DNA of 32,000 bases from Candidatus Thorarchaeota archaeon (GCA_003345555.1 PRDJ01000075.1:1100-33099), one strand, 5' to 3'; shown: positions 3,889 to 32,000, counted from the stretch's first letter. A program made the numbers and translations. Notes: generated from the letters alone by a model not told the origin.

Positions 3889-4241
3889 TCGTTACGAAAT
3901 GCTATCGTGTCATAGTCATAGAGTATCTTGTAACACCCGGGCAGACTGTTTGCACAAATGGTCTTGGATGAAACAGCCAATGTAGAACCACGGGACGTGC
4001 CAGTTCGAGTTCGGTCTTTGGTGCTGAGTTAGAGTATTAATTGCGGGTTGTGCTAATTCAGAATCTAGACGTTCTAGAAAGAAATGACACACGGCAGAAG
4101 ATGACAAGCTACAATTAGCGTGTTCTAGGCCTGCGAATGGATTGCCCCCAAACGAACGACATGGACAAATGATTAAAATACGGTAATGTGTCAACGAACC
4201 GCAGCTACTATGCACTCAAACAGTAGTGTGAGGCGACTAAT

Positions 4242-4340
4242 GTGAGCGAAGACAAGAAGAAGATTGTTCCCAAGATGCATGGCCCAAAGAATCCGTTCAA
4301 GGGTGGAAACCCGTTGAAGAAGGGCGAGAAGAAGGAGTAG
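4242..4340 (+). CDS. Small Lys-rich protein, 32 aa, absent from the ORF track
   Basis: GTG...TAG gives MSEDKKKIVPKMHGPKNPFKGGNPLKKGEKKE; upstream GAGGCG and TTAAAA (4173), T9 tract directly downstream. Confidence 0.65.
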   Translation: MSEDKKKIVPKMHGPKNPFKGGNPLKKGEKKE

Positions 4341-4344
4341 TGTC

Positions 4345-4353
4345 TTTTTTTTT
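4345..4353 (+). terminator. Archaeal oligo-T terminator
   Basis: Nine consecutive T, 4 nt after the small-ORF stop; the longest T run I saw in the window. Confidence 0.6.
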
Positions 4354-4448
4354 CACTGCATGGAGGTATCTGCAAGGCCTGAGCCTACGCAGATACTTGT
4401 CTATGCATCTATCACAAACGCCTTGCAGACATCGGACGTCCAGATTGA

Positions 4449-7589: not shown

Positions 7590-9647
7590 TTGTCTTCGGT
7601 AGCGAAAGCGGAAGGGAGCAGTGTGGTCTCAACTTACGAAGACTACGAAATGCCTTCAGTCCCGAGAAGAGGAACCGCTTTGCTCTTAGGCACAATTATC
7701 GTCGTCGCAGCTTTCACTCTCGCTTATCTGGCTCCGGGGGGCATAGGTCCTTCTGGGAAGTCTGTCCGAGTAGCAGTCATTGACTCTGGCATGAACACTA
7801 ACGGGATTCTTTGGAACAAGTTAGCTGCCGCTAAGAGCTTTGTAGACAAAGCGTACGGCTATCCCTCAACTGACAACTCCACCGAAGACAGTGCGCCCCA
7901 TGGATATCTGCATGGTTCCTACGTGGCCAAGATCATAGTCGAGAATGCGCCGAACGCGCTGGTTGTCAATGCGAAGGTCGTAGATGCAAATAACACAGCT
8001 CTTGAACTGGCAATCGTTGCGGCCATTCATTGGGCTGTAGTCGAGGAAGACTGCACCATAATCAACCTCAGCCTTGGGAGTCTGGCTTCGAACCACGATA
8101 TACTCAGTGATGCCGTGAAGTGGGCATTTGAGAGAGGAGTCACGGTTGTTGCTGCGGCAGGCAACAACGGTCAGGCGGGTGTTGCAGGCAGTTCGGTCGA
8201 GTCTCCAGCGGCGTATGTTCAGGCAATCGCCGTTGGAGCTGTGGATGAGCATGGGTTTCCGTATCCGTTCTCGGCGTGTGGCCCATTGAGGAATGGTAGC
8301 TTAAAACCAGACATCTCAGCAGACGGCTGGTATGCAGACCGTGAAACCTCCGCGACGGTGCTGGGTACGAGCTTTGCTGCACCACGGGTCACTGCGGCAG
8401 TCGTCACTCTGATTGCCCACTGCAAAGAAAACGGATGGGAATCGACACCCGGGATGATTAAGGCCACTCTAATTGCGAGTGCACACTACTTGCCTTCGGA
8501 CTCTTGGGAGGTTGGCGCCGGGTACTTAGATACTTATTCGGCAGTAATGTACTTGGACGCTGCACCCAAATCAGATAGCCTTCCTCTAGCCGTCTGCGTC
8601 CTTCCGGGCATCCGACCTTATAGCTTCGAGAGATGGTTCGTGAATTCCACTAGCTTTGTAGACTTCTCTGTCTTCGCAAGCAATAGTGCCACGTTCAGTC
8701 TGGTATATGGTGGTTCTGCCGCGCCATGGGTTACCGGACCTGACAGCATTGTGGTCAATCAGACTTCCTCTTTCTCGTTGAAAGTATGCGTGGTGTCAAA
8801 CATTTCTGTTCGCAACCTCAGAGCGTCGATAACCCTTGTTGCTCCTGAGTATGTCACAATCACAGCCCAGCTCAAATTCAACGCATCCGTAGGACTCGCA
8901 ATCGTCGCTTTTGACACAAGCCACTCTCCTTGGTGGACTGATTCAATCTATGGTCAATACAGGGAATTCTACGAACTGCTGACTAGGCTGGGCATAGCTG
9001 TAGAGGAAATCACAGACCCCGAATCCTTGCAGCTCAATACAATGCTGAGATATGATGCCATTGTGATTCTTGACCCTTGCTCGTGGGACTATTTCACCGT
9101 AAACGGCAGTCCTGTGAACGCCGGGTCGACTCGGTACTCACAAGATGACATAGAATCATACACTTCTTACTGGGAAGCAGGAGGAGGCATACTGGTTGTC
9201 GGTCAGCAAAACTCAAGCATTGACGTCGAAGGAGCCAATCAGCTTCTATCCGCGTTTAATGTCAGCATGAACTACGATAGTATGCCGCCCATCACGATTG
9301 TTGTGAACGGAATTGCATCTACGATTGCAGTGACGAGACTGGTTGCTCACAACGTGACCCAAGGCGTGGAATCGTTTGACTATAATGGGTGCTCGCTCAA
9401 CTTCTCTGGTGCGTGTTTTGAGCTTGCATGGACCGAGGTGACTTGGACAGATATGGAAGGCATTCCTCATAATGAGAATAAGACGGTAGTCGTTGGACTT
9501 GAAGGCGAGAGCGGCAACAGGCTGGTTGTCGTCGGCAGCAACTATCCCTTTGATAATTGGGGAATCAGCGGTCTATACACATCAACTCAAAACTCGAAAC
9601 TAGCTCTGCAAGCAATACTGTGGTTGACCAATCTCACTTGGCCTTAG
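7590..9647 (+). CDS. Membrane-anchored S8 subtilase with C-terminal Ig-like and GATase-like (DUF4350-like) region
   Basis: N-terminal TM helix; catalytic VAVIDSG, HGSYVA and GTSFAAP; oxyanion AAGNNG; alternative start ATG 7647. Confidence 0.9.
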   Translation: MSSVAKAEGSSVVSTYEDYEMPSVPRRGTALLLGTIIVVAAFTLAYLAPGGIGPSGKSVRVAVIDSGMNTNGILWNKLAAAKSFVDKAYGYPSTDNSTEDSAPHGYLHGSYVAKIIVENAPNALVVNAKVVDANNTALELAIVAAIHWAVVEEDCTIINLSLGSLASNHDILSDAVKWAFERGVTVVAAAGNNGQAGVAGSSVESPAAYVQAIAVGAVDEHGFPYPFSACGPLRNGSLKPDISADGWYADRETSATVLGTSFAAPRVTAAVVTLIAHCKENGWESTPGMIKATLIASAHYLPSDSWEVGAGYLDTYSAVMYLDAAPKSDSLPLAVCVLPGIRPYSFERWFVNSTSFVDFSVFASNSATFSLVYGGSAAPWVTGPDSIVVNQTSSFSLKVCVVSNISVRNLRASITLVAPEYVTITAQLKFNASVGLAIVAFDTSHSPWWTDSIYGQYREFYELLTRLGIAVEEITDPESLQLNTMLRYDAIVILDPCSWDYFTVNGSPVNAGSTRYSQDDIESYTSYWEAGGGILVVGQQNSSIDVEGANQLLSAFNVSMNYDSMPPITIVVNGIASTIAVTRLVAHNVTQGVESFDYNGCSLNFSGACFELAWTEVTWTDMEGIPHNENKTVVVGLEGESGNRLVVVGSNYPFDNWGISGLYTSTQNSKLALQAILWLTNLTWP

Positions 9648-10036
9648 AGCAGAGGGGCTATCCGATCGCATGCAGTCTTCGCGGCGTAGACCAAGAGGCC
9701 TGTCTTCAGACTCTTGGCTGCTGCTAGCACAAGAATGGCCTTCTCGCCTGCGCTTTTCATGAGCATCATACCATCCTGGTTGGTCACTAGGACTTCCTCC
9801 AGCGATCCCTGCTCCATTCTTTCTGCCGCTAAATCCGCGACCCCCAGAATCGACGCAGCCATTGCTGCGATTTCGGCTTCCTCTAACCCCTGCGGCACAG
9901 CAGACGCAATGGGAAGTCCCTCCTTCGAAAGGAGCATCCAAGCGCGAACTCCTGCAGCCATAGCTGTGGCTTCCTCCATAATCTGCCTCAGCTTGCCCTG
10001 CAGTTGTTCGAACTCGGGGTTAAGGATGGCTGCCAC
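9644..10036 (-). CDS. Roadblock/LC7 (MglB-like) domain protein
   Basis: LLSKEGLPIAS, IAAMAASIL, LEEVLV and AILVLAA pattern; GTG start after GGAGA, ORF extends to 10054. Confidence 0.9.
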   Translation of the reverse strand: MAAILNPEFEQLQGKLRQIMEEATAMAAGVRAWMLLSKEGLPIASAVPQGLEEAEIAAMAASILGVADLAAERMEQGSLEEVLVTNQDGMMLMKSAGEKAILVLAAAKSLKTGLLVYAAKTACDRIAPLL

Positions 10037-10201
10037 TCTCCGAACGCGGCGCACTGGCCTGTGGGTGGGATATGCGCATTAATAAAGTTTGGTTGACGGG
10101 CAGTGAAAATCCTGCAAGACTGGGACACACTCAGAGTAATAAGCAGTCTTTCGAGTAGTACGACTACTATTGCCTGAGGACCTATCCTCTGGTGGAAATC
10201 C

Positions 10202-12820: not shown

Positions 12821-13546
12821 ATGGCTGGAGAAACGCTTGGCAAGGTCGCAGACTTGCTTGGAGACGCCTTGAAGGTACACCGCTCTGTCAAGAATGTTAT
12901 ACTTTGTACAAAGGAAGGTGTGGTTGTCGCGGCGGTGTCCAGGAAGAACGAGAGTATTGACCCCAAAGTCCTCTCCACTGTATCAGCTGCACTTGTATGG
13001 GCGGGAACGAATGTGCTCGGGCGAGTAGGAAAAGCAAAGCCAACCTACCTAATGCATTCCACACAAAGCGAGACGATACTGACGGTATTGCAGCCGCACT
13101 ATCAGCTGGTAATTGTACTAGTAAGAGCTGAACAGGCCGCGATGGAGCCCGGATCGTTGGTGCCGAAGTTCCAATCCATTGCCACGCGTATTGAGCTGCT
13201 TATGGGTTCAAGTGCAGCGCCCCCGAAGGAAACACTTCTTGGAAACATTGTAAAGACTTTCCCAGAGATAACTCAGGCCATGCTTCTGACAATTGAGGGC
13301 TTGCCTTTGGGTTCGGTCGGGCTAGAAGACCATATAGAGATTGCCGCACTTGTGAGCTCGATATTCGCAAACGGGCTCACATACTCCAATCGCACAGAGA
13401 CCATCCTGATAAACTCTGAGCAGGCGGACCTTTTGGTTACTCGAGTCGACGAAGCGCGTCTGCTTGCAGTCGTGTGCAGGGGAATGCAACCGGATTCGCT
13501 TTCGAAGAAGATTATAGCATTTATCCAAGAGAATGTCGCTGGCTAG
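12821..13546 (+). CDS. Tandem (two-domain) Roadblock/LC7 protein
   Basis: Two repeats of the fold: ILCTKEGVVVA...LSTVSAAL and MLLTIEGLPLG...IAALVSSI. Confidence 0.75.
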   Translation: MAGETLGKVADLLGDALKVHRSVKNVILCTKEGVVVAAVSRKNESIDPKVLSTVSAALVWAGTNVLGRVGKAKPTYLMHSTQSETILTVLQPHYQLVIVLVRAEQAAMEPGSLVPKFQSIATRIELLMGSSAAPPKETLLGNIVKTFPEITQAMLLTIEGLPLGSVGLEDHIEIAALVSSIFANGLTYSNRTETILINSEQADLLVTRVDEARLLAVVCRGMQPDSLSKKIIAFIQENVAG

Positions 13547-14244
13547 TGAACCTTCGTCGGTTCTTCAATTTCGGGAGGGCCTGTTTCTTCATCACTGATC
13601 ATATCTAGTTGCCACTCCCTGAGATTGATCTTTATGTAACAGTCCTTTCCTCTTTCAGGACAGTCAATCCTGATAGTCACGTGGTCTTGCGTCTTCTCTT
13701 TGATTTCGGGATTCAGACATCCATTCTCCAGCTTCTCCATGAGCCACATGACGTAGGCTTCTGTTATTGAATTCAGACTTCCGTCCAGCAGCGCCTGGCC
13801 GAGATGCGCGAGGAAATGCCGCTTCTTCCGGCCCTGCTTTTCCACACGGACCAGCCCGACTTCCTCCATGCGTGAGATGTGCCACCTCACGGTGTCATGA
13901 TGAACACCTAGGGTCTCGGCCATCTGTTCCTGATAGCACCCCGGGTTGTTTACAATGTACGAAAACACCCTTCTAGCGGTCTCACTGCGCATTGTCAGGT
14001 AGGCCATTTCTGCTTCCTGAGACCGTAACATACGAGGATAGTAGAGCCTCTTGCCGGCGAACTTGATTGACTTCACAAGCCCTTCGCGCTCAAGGATTCT
14101 CAGATGCCACGTGAGGGTCCCAAGAGGAGATTCGAGCATCTCCACAAGTTCGAGAAGATACGTACCAGGATTCTCACAGAGGACTTGGTAGAGGTCGCGC
14201 CTAAACGGATGAAGAAGCAGCGTCAAGCGTTTTTGCTTTCCCAT
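13543..14244 (-). CDS. Double winged-HTH transcriptional regulator (COG3398-like)
   Basis: Two wHTH repeats: ENPG...GTLTWHLRILEREGLV and NNPG...TVRWHISRMEEVGLV. Confidence 0.85.
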   Translation of the reverse strand: MGKQKRLTLLLHPFRRDLYQVLCENPGTYLLELVEMLESPLGTLTWHLRILEREGLVKSIKFAGKRLYYPRMLRSQEAEMAYLTMRSETARRVFSYIVNNPGCYQEQMAETLGVHHDTVRWHISRMEEVGLVRVEKQGRKKRHFLAHLGQALLDGSLNSITEAYVMWLMEKLENGCLNPEIKEKTQDHVTIRIDCPERGKDCYIKINLREWQLDMISDEETGPPEIEEPTKVH

Positions 14245-14404
14245 CAGCCAGTCCTCTTGCGTCGGCGTCTATTCGGATGGGCTGAAAGGTCATAAAAGGT
14301 CTTCGACAAGTTGGGTGATGCTTGACATTGGATGTAAGCTTCGCAACCTTTTTGGGCGTCCAGTAACAGCCCCACATTAGAATCTGGGCTCAGAAGGGTC
14401 TGAC

Positions 14405-16237
14405 TTGTGCGGCATAACTGGTATTGTGAGCCTCAATCGCGAGAACATTGGTGAGGTTCTTGTCAAGTGTGGACGCAAACTGACCTACCGGGGGTACGAT
14501 TCCGTTGGTCTTGCAGCTGTTCACGAAGGCAAGGTCGACCTTAGGAAAGATGTCGGGACAGTGGATGCTGTAGACAAGTTACTTGGATTGTCCAAGATGA
14601 AGGGAGACAGAGGAATTGTACAACTCAGATGGGCTACATACGGTCCGCCAACAAAGCTGAATGCCCAACCACATTTCGCATGTGATGATTCAATCTATGG
14701 GGCTCACAACGGCAATATCCACAATTACGTCGAGTATCGAAGGGAGCTTGTAGAAACAGGTCATATCGTGCGTTCTGAGAATGATGGAGAGCTTTGTGTT
14801 CACGCGGTAGATAAGTACTACGAACAGACAGGCGACATGCTTGAAGCCGTGAGGCTTTCTACACGCGATTTGAAAGGTGCCTTTTCATTTGCTGTTGGCA
14901 GGGCAGACAGCAGGGAGATCTATGCCGTCAAGATGGGCTCTTCGCTTGTTGCTGGTGTGGGTAACGAAGAAACGATCGCATCAAGTGACTTGCCTTCAAT
15001 ACTTCCAGTTACTAACAACATCATCTACCTTGCCGACGGAGAAATGCTGGCGCTCTCTCCAGAGAAGGTCGAGGTGTACAGAATCGAAGATGGGAAGCGA
15101 CTCACTCGGAAGCCCGAACCCACAACCATCGACGTGCATGCCGCAGAGAAGGGCGGCTTTCCGCACTTCATGCTCAAAGAGATTAACGAACAGCCGAAGG
15201 TTGCTCAAGACGTAATGGGAGTTCTTCAGGGAGCCAAGTCCGATGAATGGCTGAATATCATAGAAGAATCAAAGAATCTGTACCTCGTGGCTTGTGGGTC
15301 GTCCTACAATGCGGGAGTGGTAGGGGCCTATTACTTCAATCGACTGGCAGGCATACCTCTTGTTCCCTCCATTGGTGGCCAGTTCGAGTCCATGTACGGC
15401 AGGGCCTTGGATGAAGACAGCCTGTCCATCTTGGTTTCCCAAAGCGGAGAGACCAAGGATATACTCAACGTCCTGAATCTCGTGAAGAGTCAAGGCAGAG
15501 GGAAAACACTGGGCATTGTCAACGTCATAGGGAGTACCCTAATGTTCAATGCCGACGCGTACATACCTATGGCCTGCGGGTACGAAGTGAGCGTCCCAGC
15601 CACAAAGACGTACTTCTCTCAGACAGTCATCTTTGCCTATCTGGCAGCGATGCTCGGCGAGAGAAATGGCACCTTGGACAGACAAGAAGCCAAGTCCATT
15701 GTTCGGATGTTAAGTCAGGACCTTCCAACACAGGCCCAAGCAACAATCGACCACACTGGAATCCTTGCAAAGAATCTCGCAAAGACCTTGATCGGTGTAA
15801 AGGATCTTTACTGTTTAGGCTACGGCATGACCGATGGAGTAGCCCGTGAGGGAGCACTCAAAATAAAGGAGATATGTTACAATCACTGTGAAGGAATGTA
15901 CAGTTCCGAGTTCAAGCACGGCCCACTAAGTATCGTCACAAGAGACTACCCTGTGATATTTGTAACGACACCCGAAGACAGCTGGATGGTAATCAACCAC
16001 ATCAACGAGGTCAAGTGCAGGTTTGGTCGTGCGATAATCGTGGGTGAGCGGGAGAGCAGCCTTGAGCCGTACGTCTCAAACGAGGTTGACTACTTGGAGG
16101 TCCCGAAAGGGAACATAGTACTCAATCCGATGATAGATGTCATCCCACTTCAGCTTCTTAGCTATTTCCTGTCAGTGGACCTAGGCATAGATCCGGATTT
16201 GCCGCGGAATCTATCCAAGACACTCACAGTTGACTGA
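14405..16237 (+). CDS. glmS: Glutamine--fructose-6-phosphate transaminase (isomerizing)
   Basis: N-terminal CGI, YRGYDS, HNG, SQSGET, ATKT, EGALKIKE, KHGP and C-terminal PRNLSKTLTVD; TTG start. Confidence 0.97.
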   Translation: MCGITGIVSLNRENIGEVLVKCGRKLTYRGYDSVGLAAVHEGKVDLRKDVGTVDAVDKLLGLSKMKGDRGIVQLRWATYGPPTKLNAQPHFACDDSIYGAHNGNIHNYVEYRRELVETGHIVRSENDGELCVHAVDKYYEQTGDMLEAVRLSTRDLKGAFSFAVGRADSREIYAVKMGSSLVAGVGNEETIASSDLPSILPVTNNIIYLADGEMLALSPEKVEVYRIEDGKRLTRKPEPTTIDVHAAEKGGFPHFMLKEINEQPKVAQDVMGVLQGAKSDEWLNIIEESKNLYLVACGSSYNAGVVGAYYFNRLAGIPLVPSIGGQFESMYGRALDEDSLSILVSQSGETKDILNVLNLVKSQGRGKTLGIVNVIGSTLMFNADAYIPMACGYEVSVPATKTYFSQTVIFAYLAAMLGERNGTLDRQEAKSIVRMLSQDLPTQAQATIDHTGILAKNLAKTLIGVKDLYCLGYGMTDGVAREGALKIKEICYNHCEGMYSSEFKHGPLSIVTRDYPVIFVTTPEDSWMVINHINEVKCRFGRAIIVGERESSLEPYVSNEVDYLEVPKGNIVLNPMIDVIPLQLLSYFLSVDLGIDPDLPRNLSKTLTVD

Positions 16238-20082: not shown

Positions 20083-20123
20083 CAATGTGGATATGATTAG
20101 TAAAACCAGTTCGAGGTGGAAAG

Positions 20124-20378
20124 ATGGGTAACTCAATCCAAGCGTATGTGCTTATGGACATCGAAATAGGGCAGTTGGACAAAGTTGTCGAACAGCTGAG
20201 ACTCATTCAACAAGCCAACAAGATTGCCGTAGTAACAGGACACTACGACATCATAATGCGAATTCAGGTCGAAAGTCTGGAGCAGCTATACGATATCACT
20301 GTCCAAAGAATTCATACGATACCAGGAATTAGGGAGACAACCACGGCAGTGATTGAGAAAATATACGTAGTACACTAG
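20124..20378 (+). CDS. Stand-alone Lrp/AsnC ligand-binding (RAM) domain protein
   Basis: AYVLMDI, VVTGHYDII and IPGIRETTTAVI; no HTH; GAGGTG upstream. Confidence 0.9.
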   Translation: MGNSIQAYVLMDIEIGQLDKVVEQLRLIQQANKIAVVTGHYDIIMRIQVESLEQLYDITVQRIHTIPGIRETTTAVIEKIYVVH

Positions 20379-20498
20379 TTCATTGCTGGAGCGGCGCTAG
20401 TGCTGTTGTGACCCATCACCTTTTATGTTGATGACCCTCGCTCCTGATGTCGGCATGCCATCATTACGTAGGATTGGCTGGCCCTGTCATAGTCGCTC

Positions 20499-25988: not shown

Positions 25989-27533
25989 TCAATCCTGAGC
26001 AGCGAGTACCTGAGTATCGGTAGTGAGAGTCACTGGTTTGGCCTGGATGTGTGTTGCTCGAACGACATTCTCGAAGTACGATGATTTCATGAGCGTTAAT
26101 GTAGTCGGGCCGAGTGCGCCTGACTCCCTGACTATACGGAATTCCTCGCTGTCCGACATCAATGCCTCTTCAAGAGCTGTGAGAAACTCGACTGCATCGA
26201 TATTGTTGTTACCCAACATGAGAGCTAGCGTGTAATGCGGTATTCCGTTTTCAACCAAACCGACCATACAGTAGTCTGACACCTGAACGCCAGTCTTCAA
26301 GCAGGCTGCGGCCATGGCATTGGATACATGCTTGTCGGATAGCTTTTCGCCCGACATGTTGACAATCTTGCCTTTTCTACTGATTGATCGTATTGTGTAA
26401 GGATTGGTGTTTGTGAAGGTCAACATATCACCGAGTCGATACCTATAGCACCCTGTGTTATTCGTCAGAACCATCTCATACCTGAATCCCTTCCTGACCT
26501 CCGACAAGGGCACTACAGTGGGATTGAGAACTTCTACTTCACTCTCGGGGATGAACTCAAGGTAATTAAGACTCGGAAGCAGCTGAATTCCCGGTTCTTC
26601 GAAGAGCTGACCTCCATAGAAGCCCTCAGACCCTCCGTACATATCAAGAATCCTCGCAGTCGGCAGTGTCTTGCTGATCCATTCTCTGTAGGGGTCACAA
26701 TCTATTCCAGAAGTGGTAAGCAGCCGCAGATTAGGCCATAGGCCTTGTACGTCCATCATGCCTTCGTCGTTCACGAGCCGTCTGATTCTCTGTTCGTGCC
26801 GGGTTCCCTTCAAAGAGTCAAGCAACCATGGACCGTATTGAGTCTGCATCCTGCGGACAAGCGCTAGCAACAGTGTGCTTATGCCCAGCAAGCCCGTCAC
26901 GTTGGTTGTTGCAAGAAGATTGGCATAACGTTTCATCTTCTCATCAACGTCAGTTATGTTGAATACATCCTCTCCGGGTTTCATCAGTCTCTTGAGAAGC
27001 GGATTGAAGCGTCTAATCATTGCACCTGTAGCATATCCTACGGGGATTCCATTAATGTGATCGATAACGGCTGGCGCGCCCAGTGTTACGAGGGTACCGT
27101 CGAATATCTTGGCATTGTCTGAATCAGCATTGACAAATGCCAACCACACAAGCATCGTTCCTTTCGAAGTGTCCTCAGCTCCACTCTCCGTCAAGGGAAT
27201 GTACTTCGGCTTTCCTGTCGTTCCTGAAGTCTTCAGATACCATATTACCGGGTCGGCAGTCAACACTTGTCCGTTCGGATTGTCGTACGTCATCTTCAGG
27301 TACGGTTCCATGCCATGGTAGTCGAAGAGCGGGACATTGGACGAATACTCTTCCGAGTTCCTTATGGATTCAAAGTCGTATCTCTTACCAAAAACAGTAC
27401 CTTTGTGACGTGCGAGCACGGACATGAGCTTCTCTTCTGTAAGCTCAATGGGGTTGCTCAGAATATGCTCTACTTCCTTGGCCTTTCTTCTGGCCATCAA
27501 TGAAACAAGCCGTCTCATGATTGACATCTGCAT
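25989..27533 (-). CDS. GH3 family acyl-adenylate-forming enzyme
   Basis: TVFGKRYDF, VPLFDY, TSGTTGKPKYIP, YGGSEG, RYRLGD and GEKL. Confidence 0.92.
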   Translation of the reverse strand: MQMSIMRRLVSLMARRKAKEVEHILSNPIELTEEKLMSVLARHKGTVFGKRYDFESIRNSEEYSSNVPLFDYHGMEPYLKMTYDNPNGQVLTADPVIWYLKTSGTTGKPKYIPLTESGAEDTSKGTMLVWLAFVNADSDNAKIFDGTLVTLGAPAVIDHINGIPVGYATGAMIRRFNPLLKRLMKPGEDVFNITDVDEKMKRYANLLATTNVTGLLGISTLLLALVRRMQTQYGPWLLDSLKGTRHEQRIRRLVNDEGMMDVQGLWPNLRLLTTSGIDCDPYREWISKTLPTARILDMYGGSEGFYGGQLFEEPGIQLLPSLNYLEFIPESEVEVLNPTVVPLSEVRKGFRYEMVLTNNTGCYRYRLGDMLTFTNTNPYTIRSISRKGKIVNMSGEKLSDKHVSNAMAAACLKTGVQVSDYCMVGLVENGIPHYTLALMLGNNNIDAVEFLTALEEALMSDSEEFRIVRESGALGPTTLTLMKSSYFENVVRATHIQAKPVTLTTDTQVLAAQD

Positions 27534-28142
27534 GCATAGCCTCCTTGTGCTTGGAACCGACGGCCCAAGCGATGCTTCGCTATGCGTTACTCTCTGATTG
27601 ATAGCCCCAACGAATCATCACTCCAAGACGGAAGCGTTCATCTTACCGCGTTTCGAGCAACCATAATCCTCTGATTCGTATAATTTCATCCAGAAGTGTC
27701 GTTTCTTGCGTCATCGGTAATATAGCTGGCCCTTGCAGAATGATAATACGGAATTTCCTGATTCGCAAGTATGCATTTGCCATGATAGTTCGTGGGAAGT
27801 GATCAGTCAGGACAAGATGCCGGAGAGGAAGACTCAGGCAGACACGCTTCTGACACCTTCAGAGGTCCTGCAGGAGCACACGGGCAGAGAACCTAGCAAG
27901 AAGGCATACGCTTGACATCACGGTAGTATCGAACCATATTGCAGGACCTAGACTTTTCCGTAAGGATATATCTGGCGGGCCAATTTTGCTGTCCCATTTT
28001 ATGACCAGAGCATCCATAGTTTCCCGTTTTGTATCGCAAGGTTAGATGTTGAGTATTTCTGTTCTTACGGCTTTATGGGTTCCCGTGGTTCTTCATGCCA
28101 ACACCCAAGAGTTCTGTGACCTAGCATGACAACGATGCAAAG

Positions 28143-28892
28143 ATGATCGCCAAGATAGAGGCGCAGCTGTTGTCGGCAAGCGCTGTTCGTAGAAATAACA
28201 TCGGCACTGTGGATGTCACTGGCCCACTCCAAGTGATATTCAACAACGGTGACCGCTGTATCGTCAATGCAAAGCTCCGATATCATGGCCCCGAGAGCAG
28301 CTCATGGTTAGCACTTGTGGTGGGCCTAAGGAGCCGGATCCTCTCTCCGTTCAGCAGGTTTGAAAACGGAAGAGACCGATACATTCCCTGCGACATCCCC
28401 GGCTTGGTTCCCGCTCTAGCGCTCACTCTGGCGCATCAAGATTGTGGACTCGCAGTGAGCGCCATAGCGCACGACGCATTCACTCACCTAGTCCTTGTAT
28501 TTGAAGGAGATGTAGCTGCCAAGGGCGGCAATCTCAGATCACTTGCCGCTTCGGTATGGACTTTCATGAAAAGGTGGACCGACTGGACCGATGTTCTGCT
28601 GGCCACCGCTTCGCACGACCCATCGGCGGCTAAATGGAACTTAGACTGGCGAGAATTCCTTGCAGGCGAATCCGGATTTGTAACCATGCCTTGGTTCAGA
28701 CCCATGAACTACCTCGACCGAGCCCTTAGTCTGGAGAGAATTGTTGCGGCCTCCAAATCGCTCTTGGCTTCTGTTCTGAACCAAGCTCAGATGGAGGATC
28801 CCCGGATTCGGACACTCACTTCCTGGCTAGACCAGCTGGCACCCCTTTCAGAGGTCGTCGGTGGAATGGAAGCAGCGGAGGCTGAAGTTTAG
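28143..28892 (+). CDS. Hypothetical protein, gene 1 of the RadA/XPD operon
   Basis: 249-aa globular-looking ORF; next gene starts 1 nt after its stop. Confidence 0.8.
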   Translation: MIAKIEAQLLSASAVRRNNIGTVDVTGPLQVIFNNGDRCIVNAKLRYHGPESSSWLALVVGLRSRILSPFSRFENGRDRYIPCDIPGLVPALALTLAHQDCGLAVSAIAHDAFTHLVLVFEGDVAAKGGNLRSLAASVWTFMKRWTDWTDVLLATASHDPSAAKWNLDWREFLAGESGFVTMPWFRPMNYLDRALSLERIVAASKSLLASVLNQAQMEDPRIRTLTSWLDQLAPLSEVVGGMEAAEAEV

Positions 28893-28893
28893 T

Positions 28894-29361
28894 ATGATGT
28901 GTAACGATCTATGTCGAAGCTTTTCGAGGTTGACTGTGGAAATCATGGGACCTTCGTGGATAGCCGGTGCTGTGACAGGCATTAGAGCTTCCACAAGGCG
29001 AGAATCGGATTGGATTTGGGACCGATTCATCGAGGAACTCTATGACGCCGCCGAAAGGCTAGGAGACATTCAACCAGCTGAGCCAGCAACCTCACTGGCA
29101 GATGAATATGGCTTCGCGGGTTCAGCATACGACACTCTCGGGGGTTATGTCAGCACAGCAGGTGAAGTCCGTTCTCAGGGATTGTACTTCAGTGTCTCTC
29201 CGGAACAGTTGGAGAACGTCATAAGACTGCTTCCGGATTTCACAGTGCTCAGGGCAAAGGGCGGCCTCATTGTACCACGTTACGAACTGGGTTCTTTCTT
29301 GAATCTCGTACCTGTGAACGGACCATTGTTGGATCAGCTGACGGAGGGGAGCTTGCAGTGA
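28894..29361 (+). CDS. Hypothetical protein, gene 2 of the RadA/XPD operon
   Basis: ATG 28894 follows TAG 28892; GTGA overlap with the radA-like gene; ORF extends to 28861. Confidence 0.75.
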   Translation: MMCNDLCRSFSRLTVEIMGPSWIAGAVTGIRASTRRESDWIWDRFIEELYDAAERLGDIQPAEPATSLADEYGFAGSAYDTLGGYVSTAGEVRSQGLYFSVSPEQLENVIRLLPDFTVLRAKGGLIVPRYELGSFLNLVPVNGPLLDQLTEGSLQ

Positions 29362-30434
29362 CAGAGCTTGAGGCAGTGACAGGTGTCGGACCCGCAGTGG
29401 CGAAGAAACTCCGAGAGGTGTTTGTGACGACTGCGGAGCTTCTCGCTGTTCAGAACCATGTGGACCTGCAGAACAGGACCAAACTTGGAGAAGGCACCGC
29501 TCTAAAAATCATACGGAATGCTAGACAACTTGTAGGGCTTTGTGGTTTCAAGTCGGGTCTCGAAATGGAGCAAGAGATGGCAGGTAAGCCCCGCCTTAGC
29601 ACTGGCATAGATAGAGCCAATGCAGCACTCCTCGGTGGTATAGAGACAGGCTCGGTAGTAGAATTCTACGGTGCTGCACGAAGCGGAAAGACGCAATGGT
29701 GTGGTCAGCTAGCTGTCATGGTTCAGCTGCCTCTGGAAAAGGGAGGGCTTGAAGGTCGAGTGCTCTGGCTGGATACAGAAAATTCCTTCAAACCATGGAT
29801 CATTAGAGCGGACGCAGTCCGGTTTGGATTGGACCCGGACGTTGCCCTCGGGAACATTGGCCACGCTCACATCGTAATGACTGAACAGATGACACAGCTC
29901 TTCGAGAACATACCGCAACTCTGTGCGGAGGAAGACTACAAGCTCGTGGTTATTGATTCATTGACCGGGCTTTTCAGGGCCGAATACACAGGACTTGAGC
30001 TCCTAAGAGTAAGACAGCAGGAGATGAATGGCCTTCTCAACCTGATGAGACGTACTGCGACCGCAACTGGAACAATCTTCTGCTACACCAATCAGGTCAT
30101 GTCTAGCATGGGGACATTCAAGTCCAATCCCAACTCTCCAGTCGGAGGACACATCATCTCACACGCCTCCGATTATCGATTCTATGTAAAGAAGAAGCTA
30201 AAGGATGTCAGGGGCCTTCAGCTCCAGGACAACGCAGGTATACCTGAGTTTGACATTGATGTAGTGATCGGATGGGGCGGCTTCTACACAGATGCGAAAA
30301 CGAAGAAGAAAGTCGAGGCGGATGTTCTGGAGTACTTCAGAAAGACCGGTTGGAATCCCGAGATGACAGAGGGTCATGAGGAGCCTGGAGAAACGAAGGG
30401 AGAAACCGAGGAGATTGTGGAGGAAAGCGATTAG
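29358..30434 (+). CDS. Divergent RadA/Rad51-family recombinase paralog with N-terminal HhH domain and acidic tail
   Basis: GVGPAVAKKL HhH, Walker A GAARSGKT, QLP..KGGL, LDTE, Walker B VVIDS, FRAEY, RQQ, TNQV and PVGGH. Confidence 0.92.
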   Translation: MTELEAVTGVGPAVAKKLREVFVTTAELLAVQNHVDLQNRTKLGEGTALKIIRNARQLVGLCGFKSGLEMEQEMAGKPRLSTGIDRANAALLGGIETGSVVEFYGAARSGKTQWCGQLAVMVQLPLEKGGLEGRVLWLDTENSFKPWIIRADAVRFGLDPDVALGNIGHAHIVMTEQMTQLFENIPQLCAEEDYKLVVIDSLTGLFRAEYTGLELLRVRQQEMNGLLNLMRRTATATGTIFCYTNQVMSSMGTFKSNPNSPVGGHIISHASDYRFYVKKKLKDVRGLQLQDNAGIPEFDIDVVIGWGGFYTDAKTKKKVEADVLEYFRKTGWNPEMTEGHEEPGETKGETEEIVEESD

Positions 30435-30880
30435 TGCTCACCAAAGAGAGAGGCATGTTCCGCATCTACGAGTGTCCCCGTTGCAGGAACATCGGTTTCG
30501 CACAAGTCGAAAGCGAGGAGTGCGTTTCGCGATGTAGCTTGTGCCAAGGTCCCATCGCACATGCCCCCGCGATGCAATATGCTGCAACCATTCAGGAAGC
30601 AGAATCCTGTGTCAGAGAGGCCGTGGTCGGAACTAAACTGAAACCAAAATCATCAGGAAGTTCGAGGACCATAGGGCTGAAGAAACGGGTATTGAACATA
30701 GTTGAAGCTCTGGTTGATATGAACAAGGGACGCCCCGTCAGCCTCAAGGACATTCTTCGCGAATGCACAGACGCAGGTATTGACAAGGACAGGGCAATGG
30801 ATTTCATCGAGGCTCTTCTCGGCGAGGGGATTCTCTCAGGCGACGACCTCGGTATGAGACCTTCTGGGAGGCCTTCGTGA
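30434..30880 (+). CDS. Zn-ribbon plus C-terminal winged-helix protein
   Basis: CPRC...CSLC, basic linker, then helical ILRECTDAGIDKDRAMDFIEALLGEGIL; alternative start ATG 30455. Confidence 0.75.
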   Translation: MLTKERGMFRIYECPRCRNIGFAQVESEECVSRCSLCQGPIAHAPAMQYAATIQEAESCVREAVVGTKLKPKSSGSSRTIGLKKRVLNIVEALVDMNKGRPVSLKDILRECTDAGIDKDRAMDFIEALLGEGILSGDDLGMRPSGRPS

Positions 30881-30881
30881 C

Positions 30882-31508
30882 GTGCCCGATACTGAGGTTA
30901 CACCCACATCTATCTGGAATCAGCCCGTGTCGGCAAGTGTTGGTGGTAGCTCTCTCATAAACCTGGCCAACTTGCTTCTTAGAGAGACGAGTACCAGGAT
31001 CACAACGCTTCAACGATGCGAGGGTCCGGACCCAGAACTCTTTGTGGTCTCACGACTAGAATGGAGAGATTCGGATCCGAGGAAACCTGTGCTTCCGCAA
31101 ATGCCTAGAATTCTCTCTCTCCTCGAGACACTCCGTGAAAGCAAGGGTGTGCCTCACGAGATATACTTGGACAGCAACGATGGCATTGCAGTGTACCTTC
31201 CCACAGGAACCAGAATCTCGGACCTGCCCCGGAATTCAAAGGAAGCCATCCGGATTCTCATGGCTCTCGCACGTGACACCGTTGCAAATGTGCTCTCGAC
31301 GATGCATGAAGTGGAGAATTGCTTCTGGATGGCCGCTCGTCGAAAGGGTTTCAGTCCTGAGATTGTAGAGAGGATGGCACTAAAAGAACAGCATTATGAC
31401 TCACCTGGAATCCTCAGGGAATTCCACGGCATCTTGAGGAAGTATTTCTCAATTCGTTTCCACATTCAGAGAAGCGAGTCATGTCTCTACGTCGAGGAGG
31501 AAGTCTGA
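30882..31508 (+). CDS. Hypothetical protein, gene 5 of the RadA/XPD operon
   Basis: 208-aa ORF starting 1 nt after the previous stop; TGATG overlap with the helicase gene. Confidence 0.8.
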   Translation: MPDTEVTPTSIWNQPVSASVGGSSLINLANLLLRETSTRITTLQRCEGPDPELFVVSRLEWRDSDPRKPVLPQMPRILSLLETLRESKGVPHEIYLDSNDGIAVYLPTGTRISDLPRNSKEAIRILMALARDTVANVLSTMHEVENCFWMAARRKGFSPEIVERMALKEQHYDSPGILREFHGILRKYFSIRFHIQRSESCLYVEEEV

Positions 31509-32000
31509 TGGCAACTGTAACGAGTTCGCTTCGGTACTTCCCCTATAGACCCAGACCGCACCAAGACCGGGCTGTTGCATTTGCAGCTCAGGTATTCTCA
31601 GGCAAATCGGTCGGGCTACTCTCTGCAGATTGCGGCGTAGGCAAGACCATTGCTGCCTTGTCGGGCTATCTGGCAGCTCGCGCTGATGATGCCGACTCAA
31701 GGTTGATTGTTCTCACTAGGACACACTCACAAGCCCGTGTCTTTGAGAACGAGCTCGCGATACTCAGGAGCAGACTACCATCGCTGACGGCTACAACTAT
31801 GCTGTCTAGAGTCCACACCTGCCCGATAAGAGACCGGTTCGGGTCAGTATCACTCACCGGTTTCATGAGAGCCTGCATGAACCTCATAAAGACAGGGGAG
31901 TGCACTCACTATTGGGGCTTCTACAAGAGAGGTGAAGGTAGGATTCAGGTAAGGGACCACGTACAGTATGAGATTGACGACCTGCTCGACTCCGGCGTTG
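31508..32000 (+). CDS. XPD/Rad3/DinG-family Fe-S helicase, N-terminal part (runs off the right edge, absent from the ORF track)
   Basis: MATVTSSLRYFPYRPRPHQ (Q motif), ADCGVGKT (Walker A), VLTRTHSQ (motif Ia) and Cys at SRVHTCP, RAC and GEC. Confidence 0.9.
   Translation, partial: MATVTSSLRYFPYRPRPHQDRAVAFAAQVFSGKSVGLLSADCGVGKTIAALSGYLAARADDADSRLIVLTRTHSQARVFENELAILRSRLPSLTATTMLSRVHTCPIRDRFGSVSLTGFMRACMNLIKTGECTHYWGFYKRGEGRIQVRDHVQYEIDDLLDSGV

Follow-up and report, generated by a model that had tools for sequence, protein, structure and literature searches.

The 3' end of a 32,000-nucleotide (nt) stretch of a Candidatus Thorarchaeota archaeon genome (G000:C75:1100-33099; the window, that is, the whole stretch of DNA that was analysed) carries the first genes of a conserved operon that, on balance, appears to encode a second, dedicated, membrane-tethered homologous-recombination machine of Thorarchaeota. 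As predicted from its sequences and those of its relatives, the operon comprises a RadA paralog (g03), two RadB-like proteins (g12 and g14), two helicases (g06 and g10), a flap nuclease paralog (g15), a protein with a zinc (Zn) ribbon and a winged helix-turn-helix (g04), four membrane proteins (g07, g09, g11 and g13) and four small orphans (g01, g02, g05 and g08).

Six open reading frames (ORFs) lie end to end on the + strand from 28143 to 32000, the last base of the window, which coincides with the end of contig C75. An earlier note on this DNA had described them as a translationally coupled run of six genes, and all ORFs as well as every junction were found to read as stated there. The TAG stop of g01 (28890-28892) is followed by the ATG of g02, which begins at 28894; g02 and g03 overlap in GTGA (29358-29361); g03 and g04 meet in TAGTG (30432-30436); the TGA stop of g04 (30878-30880) precedes the GTG of g05, which begins at 30882; and g05 and g06 are joined in TGATG (31506-31510). 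Ortholog alignments favour the g02 start at 28894 over the longer form from 28861 and the g06 start at 31508 over 31481, the latter gene being truncated by the contig end after 164 codons. GGAGG occurs within 25 nt 5' of the starts of g02-g06, the start of g01 being without it. Tight junctions are by themselves frequent in archaeal operons, and it is because the gene order is kept in the loci of relatives, not because of the junctions alone, that the operon is considered to be beyond chance.

Twenty-four such loci were retrieved, 23 from 15 genera of family f1 and one from the sister family f2. In all 23 family f1 loci g01-g12 are collinear with abutting or overlapping junctions, save that six lack a detected g01, g02 and/or g08 and that two contigs stop before g12. 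The orthologs of g01 and g05 stand about 2.7 kilobases (kb) apart on the same strand, and the sister-family locus keeps a reduced set consisting of g03, g04, g05, g06, g09 and g10. Since g13-g15 are conserved 3' of g12 in relatives, the cluster has at least 15 genes. The conservation of gene order, which the earlier note had named among the matters to be checked, is found throughout g01-g12; its count of at least six genes holds for those six, but they make up only the first third of the unit, and the six-gene picture lacked the four membrane proteins, including the HerA/VirB4-like g09, the most telling feature of all. A nuclease, which it had proposed to look for beyond base 32000, is present there in the form of the FEN1/XPG paralog g15. 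Given the translational coupling of the genes and their unvarying order, the operon proteins presumably act together. In the genome under study g11-g15 are located at the end of contig C37, and neither g09 nor a second Helicase_C_2 match was found in the assembly, so that the middle of the operon appears to sit in an assembly gap.

The profile of g05 matched 54 of the 85 family f1 genomes and the single genome of sister family f2, and none of 314 other Asgard genomes; phylum-wide this profile was found in 20 of 90 high-quality genomes and 16 of 85 genera. Within family f1, the profile of g09 likewise matched 54 of 85 genomes, with 19 of the 23 high-quality genomes and 15 of the 16 genera represented. 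One operon copy is present per genome, its order is constant, the neighbouring GH3 gene is kept in 15 of the 24 relatives' loci, and sequence identity falls with increasing distance of relationship, from 85% and 63% inside the genus to 25-55% outside it. Taken together, the single copy, the same order, the GH3 neighbour and the graded divergence argue for vertical inheritance with some losses and not for a mobile island. By these distributions the operon is lineage-specific to Thorarchaeota and mostly vertically inherited. The composition of the operon region equals that of the rest of the window.

The recombinase of the operon, g03, is a full-length RadA paralog. It matches Pfam Rad51 (PF08423) with 184.7 bits (cut-off 22) and HHH_5 with 25.7 bits, slightly below the cut-off of 27. 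Its Walker A (GAARSGKTQ) and Walker B (KLVVIDS) motifs are conserved in 25 orthologs and the L1 and L2 regions are intact; in the polymerisation motif F64 is nearly invariant, but FxxG is found in place of FxxA. The canonical RadA of the same genome, encoded on contig C6, is 36% identical to g03 and scores 312 bits, against 186 bits for the operon copy. The ortholog of g03 in locus L034 falls below the archaeal RadA equivalog cut-offs NF003301 and TIGR02236 (252.7 with a cut-off of 259 and 238.7 with a cut-off of 361, respectively), and scores higher on the archaeal RadA models (253 and 239 bits) than on the RAD51/DMC1 models (190 and 187 bits). In a tree that took in canonical and extra RadA copies from six Asgard families, eukaryotic sequences being left out, the operon copies of both Thorarchaeota families form a clade of their own with a stem of 1.06 substitutions per site (support 100/99). 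A recent duplication of the Thorarchaeota RadA, considered as the source of g03, was rejected in view of this separate and long-stemmed clade. At least 120 Thorarchaeota clusters of g03 are present in metagenomes, and public annotations give the protein as RadA, AAA ATPase or hypothetical.

Multiple RadA-like genes are also found in other Asgard families, since three genomes (G040, G044 and G060; loci L098-L109) carry four or five full-length copies each (Rad51 166-338 bits), in agreement with the published RadA paralog clades in Heimdall-, Loki-, Gerd- and Njordarchaeia. In a 2025 survey of Asgard RadA paralogs, where Thorarchaeota go unmentioned, the eukaryotic Rad51 and Dmc1 were placed outside all Asgard RadA clades (PMC12722695). 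Within the operon itself, genus g7 (L045:4605-5603, G033; also G009) has a second RadA-like gene of 332 amino acids (aa) in the slot of g02, directly 5' of the operon RadA paralog (HHH_5 and Rad51, 106 bits), which gives this variant four RecA-fold genes; it also contains a 691-aa orphan ORF between GH3 and g01.

Both g12 and g14 consist of a RecA core without the N-terminal helix-hairpin-helix (HhH) domain, i.e. they are of the RadB/Rad51-paralog type. The former has a conserved GSGKT, matches RadB in the PDB (2cvf, E 6.5e-6) as well as RAD51D and XRCC3, and aligns with the RadA profile at an hhalign probability of 95%, whereas the latter was recognised by Pfam Rad51 (25-39 bits; cut-off 22). 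The nuclease g15 carries XPG_I (58-66 bits; cut-off 24.9), while among three orthologs a single one showed XPG_N, with 21.1 bits (cut-off 22). All six genomes checked have g15 in addition to a canonical FEN1; identification of g15 as the housekeeping FEN1 was rejected, a better-scoring copy being found elsewhere in each of them.

Of the two helicases, g06 is represented in the window by a piece with the Walker A motif CGVGKT, three of the four cluster cysteines and a DEAD_2 match of 15.5 bits. Its full-length orthologs of about 652 aa show DEAD_2 (77.5 bits), the arch domain HBB (28 bits) and Helicase_C_2 (81.4 bits), and their DEAHNL motif and four iron-sulphur (Fe-S) cysteines are at least 90% conserved, while the score of 163.9 lies below the rad3 subfamily cut-off of 246.95. 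For g10, known from relatives, the match to PRK02362 is confined to the motor half (residues 27-394), and with 352 and 278 bits g10 falls well short of the Hel308 equivalog cut-offs of 887 and 1200; by these scores it is Hel308-like and not a Hel308 ortholog. XPD is a 5'-3' helicase and Hel308 a 3'-5' one. In another genome of the same genus (G003; L033 = G003:C3:589000-606999) both helicase genes are split into two ORFs, at 8103-10059 for XPD (443 + 211 aa) and at 13250-15464 for the Hel308-like gene (304 + 451 aa), which may be due either to sequencing-error frameshifts or to real decay.

Housekeeping copies of the operon enzymes are located elsewhere in this genome, with RadA on C6, an XPD-type helicase on C26, a closer Hel308-like helicase on C30 and FEN1 on C10. 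The 676-aa ORF on C26 (G000:C26:12212-17217; L003 and L007) is the only complete XPD-type helicase of the genome; it lies about 1 kb from a small RecA/RadB-like gene (249 aa, Rad51 58 bits), which is followed by a CDP-archaeol synthase, and C26 is therefore a second XPD-RecA-like neighbourhood of the same genome.

In g04, residues C14, C17, C34 and C37 are invariant in 24 orthologs, and weak matches were obtained to TFIIB-type Zn ribbons, to HTH_20 and to the MCM C-terminal winged helix (Mcm7, E 0.0035; PF21100, E 0.0024). The gene assignments of the earlier note can be judged on this basis. Its Zn-ribbon/winged-helix protein agrees with the invariant cysteines and the repeated winged-helix matches, weak but consistent as this evidence is; its XPD-like gene 6 is confirmed as an XPD-type Fe-S helicase by the domains, the DEAHNL motif and the four cysteines of the full-length orthologs; and both its distinction of the RadA paralog from the housekeeping radA and its proposal of a dedicated recombination module apart from the latter are supported by the canonical RadA on C6 together with the separate, well-supported clade of the operon copies. 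Genes 1, 2 and 5 had been called unassigned accessory subunits: they are indeed without a family match in profile searches, and their accessory role is putative.

Four genes of the operon encode membrane proteins, with hydropathy giving two transmembrane helices in g07, one or two in g09, two in g11 and three to four in g13. The helices of g09 are located at about residues 40-85 and its C-terminus gave weak winged-helix matches (MarR and PadR). The core matches HerA chains in PDB profile searches weakly (E 0.014-0.6), chains of SIR2-HerA and DUF4297-HerA being among them, and all ten of the nearest named ESM-Atlas clusters carry DUF87, HerA, VirB4 or TraG, with structural template modelling (TM) scores of 0.46-0.54. 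One of these nearest clusters is annotated as DNA import protein CedB, and some carry FtsK_SpoIIIE. The P-loop position of g09 reads CGGxxxER; because GK[ST], and with it the Walker A lysine, is absent, g09 is probably not an ATPase. A search of its profile against 1.84 billion representatives yielded 196 relatives, and in nine of these checked in Pfam no ATPase family was found, only weak winged-helix matches. Distant members in other lineages adjoin Hel308-like helicases (L059, L061 and L110), a RecA-like and Zn-ribbon pair (L111) or a DUF87 ATPase (L057). Distant relatives were also seen to adjoin very large Peptidase_M28-domain proteins (L111:2220-7092 and L112:2-6811), so that the g09 family occurs in quite different membrane-associated contexts as well.

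The remaining membrane proteins and the small orphans match no recognised family. Pfam gave zero matches for g08, g09, g11 and g13 (g08 and g13 were searched among family collections in Pfam only), NCBIfam gave nothing for g09 and g11 and only a weak chance match to NuoN for g07, and PADLOC gave nothing for g07, g09 and g11; the profiles of g11 and g13 returned only chance-level rows from PDB sequences. The same holds for the g01, g02 and g05 profiles against PDB sequences, and these three proteins had zero matches in Pfam, NCBIfam and PADLOC. Orthologs of g01 are present in 30 of 36 family genomes, and g05 is the best conserved of the three, with a 25-ortholog alignment that includes family f2. 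Structures were predicted for g01 and g05 with AlphaFold 2 (AF2). The model of g01 is confident, having a predicted local distance difference test (pLDDT) score of 89 and a predicted TM score (pTM) of 0.87, and shows a weak likeness to the YbjN and type III chaperone fold (Foldseek probability of about 0.9 at E 0.02; VIA Z 4.2-5.3), which says nothing on function. The model of g05 (pLDDT 79.8, pTM 0.71) found no match in the PDB, the Foldseek E being above 0.07 and the best VIA Z 4.7. In AFDB each of the two clearly matched only its own ortholog, and ESM-Atlas held neither a usable match nor a stored model for them. Neither model looks enzyme-like, and no enzyme fold emerged from the structure searches with genes 1 and 5, two of the three for which such searches had been suggested. 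No relation between g01 and g05, and no likeness of g02 to RadA, was found by hhalign. A complex prediction of g02, g04 and the RadA paralog scored 0.49, and 0.51 in a control with g02 replaced, and is used as evidence in neither direction. In one single-contig genome (G027:C1) g01 is found at 1252639-1253166, more than 1 megabase from g05 (96971-97525), g09 (91833-94130) and the rest of the operon, which makes g01 separable from the other genes.

Upstream of g01 lies a divergent intergenic region whose unusual length had been pointed out earlier; it is indeed the longest gap between ORFs of at least 100 aa in the window. In ten relatives' loci with GH3 and g01 adjacent, the corresponding gap measures 521-720 nt. 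Comparison with relatives revealed no conserved sequence, ORF or Rfam family in the 609-nt region, which is presumed to be the promoter region of the operon. Both here and in the sister family, as in most relatives, the GH3 gene flanks the operon divergently, at a distance of 0.5-2.6 kb, and a functional link between them is not evident. Further long gaps between ORFs of at least 100 aa, at 3889-4448 (560 nt) and 20083-20498 (416 nt), may hold small genes or RNAs. The features are collected in Table 1.

Table 1. Genes of the recombination operon and its 5' flank; positions are counted from the first base of the window, and genes beyond its end are given as known from relatives or from contig C37 of the same genome.
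Feature	Size	Position or source	Strand	Description
GH3		25989-27533	-	GH3-family acyl-acid amido synthetase-like gene; GH3 N, M and C domains
Intergenic region	609 nt	27534-28142	.	Divergent, between GH3 (- strand) and g01
g01	249 aa	28143-28892	+	Orphan soluble protein; alpha/beta domain at about residues 1-155, then helical domain
g02	155 aa	28894-29361	+	Orphan soluble protein; conserved motifs WLAGA and GSxYDxLGGYxS (20-ortholog alignment)
g03	358 aa	29358-30434	+	Full-length RadA paralog; N-terminal HhH, RecA core, C-terminal extension (GWGGFY and acidic tail)
g04	148 aa	30434-30880	+	N-terminal four-cysteine Zn ribbon and C-terminal winged helix-turn-helix
g05	208 aa	30882-31508	+	Orphan soluble protein; motifs FWxxAR, GFSPEIVER and YFSxRF
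g06	164 codons	31508-32000	+	XPD/Rad3-type Fe-S helicase, N-terminal part, cut by contig end
g07	~198 aa	relatives		Membrane protein; two N-terminal transmembrane helices
g08	~100 aa	relatives		Orphan
g09	~780 aa	relatives		N-terminal transmembrane helices, HerA/VirB4-like core, C-terminal winged helix
g10	~730 aa	relatives, collinear 3' of g09		Hel308-like motor, diverged C-terminal half
g11	490-600 aa	relatives and C37		Soluble domain, two transmembrane helices, second domain, acidic tail
g12	~230 aa	relatives and C37		RadB-like
g13	~320 aa	relatives and C37		Orphan; three to four transmembrane helices and soluble domain
g14	~242 aa	relatives and C37		Second RadB-like
g15	~330 aa	relatives and C37		FEN1/XPG-like nuclease paralog

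In a membrane-tethered recombination machine of this composition, g07, g09, g11 and g13 would anchor the enzymes to the membrane, and g09, as a probable pseudo-ATPase, would act as a DNA-binding ring or a scaffold. The two helicases, which belong to families of opposite polarity, and the flap nuclease would generate single-stranded or branched DNA; loading or regulation of the RadA paralog would fall to the RadB-like proteins and the small subunits; and this dedicated RadA would pair the prepared DNA with the chromosome. The likeliest substrate, at a guess, would be DNA arriving at or crossing the membrane. It is tentatively proposed, as a possibility that we still regard as doubtful, that the machine couples DNA uptake to recombination, in that DNA from outside or from a partner cell would pass directly to the recombination enzymes of the machine, the whole being assembled upon an inactivated VirB4/HerA-like ring together with three orphan membrane proteins. 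This proposal is made because the strongest precedent for membrane proteins and VirB4/HerA-like proteins beside recombination genes is provided by Ced/Ted, the DNA-import systems of Crenarchaeota (CedA, CedA1, CedA2 and CedB; TedA-C), which in Thermoproteales are clustered with rad50 and herA (PMC9905601). Like Ced/Ted, the operon is a chromosomal, lineage-wide archaeal cluster in which small membrane proteins and a VirB4/HerA-like protein are combined with recombination genes, and the Atlas clusters closest to g09 include CedB. Unlike Ced/Ted, the operon itself holds a recombinase, two helicases and a nuclease; neither a CedA/VirB6-like channel of six to seven helices nor a VirB2-like pilin was recognised in it, g09 is without the Walker A GK[ST], and the sequence similarity shown is limited to the ATPase superfamily.

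Several points weigh against a membrane-tethered recombination machine, and some of them most directly against import. Joint action of the operon proteins is presumed from gene order and coupling, and the transmembrane helices were called from hydropathy only, by which no VirB6/CedA-like channel was seen in g07, g09, g11 or g13. No recognisable pilin was found in the membrane part, g07 and g08 not having been compared with pilins. Since the only VirB4/HerA-like protein is without the Walker A lysine, a Ced-type import motor is absent; furthermore, its HerA assignment comes from weak sequence scores and from language-model and structure neighbours, below every curated family cut-off. In the genome under study, the part from the C-terminus of g06 to g10 is unassembled and was inferred from relatives of the same genus. 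Finally, most genomes of genus g3 are without the operon (found in 4-6 of 17), which is also missing in 4 of the 23 high-quality genomes of the family; as it is absent from some genomes, it is dispensable.

Of the alternatives, a cytoplasmic repair or replication-restart pathway, acting on breaks, crosslinks or stalled forks and duplicating the housekeeping enzymes, appears unlikely, although it survives best. The membrane proteins would then be an anchor, a sensor or a regulator, and no DNA would cross the membrane. RadA, RadB, XPD, Hel308 and FEN1/XPG are classical repair and fork-processing families, a g09 without the P-loop lysine is not a usual translocation motor, and the lack of a recognised channel-like protein and pilin fits such a pathway as well. 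However, a purely cytoplasmic pathway can hardly account for the membrane proteins that 4 of the 15 conserved genes encode, a VirB4/HerA/CedB-like one among them, and full housekeeping copies are already present.

A role in defence against viruses or plasmids, with foreign DNA recognised by the helicases and attacked by the nuclease and by membrane effectors, and with the RecA-like proteins as sensors, is quite unlikely. It is suggested by the scores of g10 on the HamB (Hachiman) and related PADLOC models and of g06 on the type IV CRISPR DinG model, by the occurrence of HerA-like proteins and membrane effectors in known defence systems, and by the loss of the operon from part of one genus. The helicase scores, however, reflect general family likeness: PADLOC recognised no system's full signature set, its generic helicase models being hit by g06 and g10 only, and gave nothing for g01-g05, g07, g09 and g11 (g08 and g12-g15 were outside this search). 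In contrast to Hachiman (HamA-HamB) and to type IV CRISPR systems, neither HamA nor cas genes nor other defence proteins were detected, and the distribution is vertical and syntenic. A single copy, a constant order, the GH3 neighbour in 15 of 24 loci, presence in 15 of 16 genera and divergence that follows relatedness form a vertical pattern unlike that of patchy, mobile defence islands, and the suggestion in the earlier note that the module acts against mobile genetic elements therefore fits poorly with this near-universal, syntenic inheritance.

It is very improbable that the operon encodes a division-site machine which clears or resolves chromosomal DNA in the manner of FtsK/SpoIIIE, its recombinase, helicases and nuclease untangling linked chromosomes. 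As in FtsK, the membrane helices of g09 come first, followed by a HerA/FtsK-type core and, at the C-terminus, a winged helix; FtsK_SpoIIIE is carried by some of its nearest Atlas clusters, and an XPG-family nuclease could cut junctions; but g09 is without the Walker A lysine needed for pumping, the operon is dispensable in some genomes, a site-specific recombinase is absent and nothing connects the operon to division genes. A domesticated virus or plasmid replication-recombination module, fixed in the ancestor of Thorarchaeota, is hardly probable at all: mobile elements often combine RecA-like, helicase, FEN-like and VirB4/HerA-like genes, and the RadA paralog, with its long stem, falls outside the Asgard RadA sequences sampled, but the cluster showed neither an integrase nor a capsid, primase or polymerase gene, its composition is that of the rest of the window, and such an origin would not explain the present role of the operon.

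The favoured reading of the operon as a membrane-tethered recombination machine can further be set beside other known systems. With the herA-mre11-rad50-nurA operon of thermophilic archaea it shares a HerA-superfamily protein and a nuclease in a recombination operon; it differs in lacking Mre11, Rad50 and NurA, in a HerA-like protein that is membrane-anchored and probably an inactive ATPase, and in the RadA/RadB paralogs and the XPD and Hel308 helicases, found only in the Thorarchaeota operon. The eukaryotic toolkit of RAD51 paralogs, HELQ, RTEL1/FANCJ and GEN1/EXO1 similarly combines a recombinase and truncated RecA-fold paralogs with Hel308/HELQ-type, XPD-family and XPG-family proteins, but the operon RadA scores higher on archaeal RadA models and the membrane anchoring is without a eukaryotic counterpart. 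The bacterial competence module (ComEC, ComFA, DprA and RecA) may be regarded as analogous in gene content, with membrane proteins, a superfamily 2 (SF2) helicase motor, loaders and a recombinase for incoming single-stranded DNA, homology being shown for the RecA fold only. The earlier statement that no named archaeal system has this gene set is in accordance with our searches, as none was found in the literature or with PADLOC, and no published description of such a cluster was found in the literature. Judging from profile scores, each operon enzyme belongs to a known superfamily, several below ortholog cut-offs, and the overall architecture is one that has not been described previously, related in kind to archaeal recombination clusters and with a possible Ced/Ted-like link.

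With g01, g02, g05, g07, g08, g11 and g13 the operon contributes at least seven conserved proteins to which no known family could be assigned, and the confident models obtained for two of these have no match among solved folds. Beside its housekeeping recombination enzymes, an entire Asgard class maintains a full second set that is distinct from them and would be tied to membrane proteins, and its protein families are also those of which the eukaryotic recombination toolkit consists. Should the operon enzymes operate as a single machine, they would provide a compact and expressible model for the cooperation of recombinase paralogs, mediators and helicases. If incoming DNA is indeed its substrate, the operon would be categorically new and the first candidate for a gene-exchange apparatus in Asgard archaea, and it would show in a prokaryote that a recombinase set can be set apart for exchanged DNA, a division of labour among recombinases such as eukaryotes show in meiosis.

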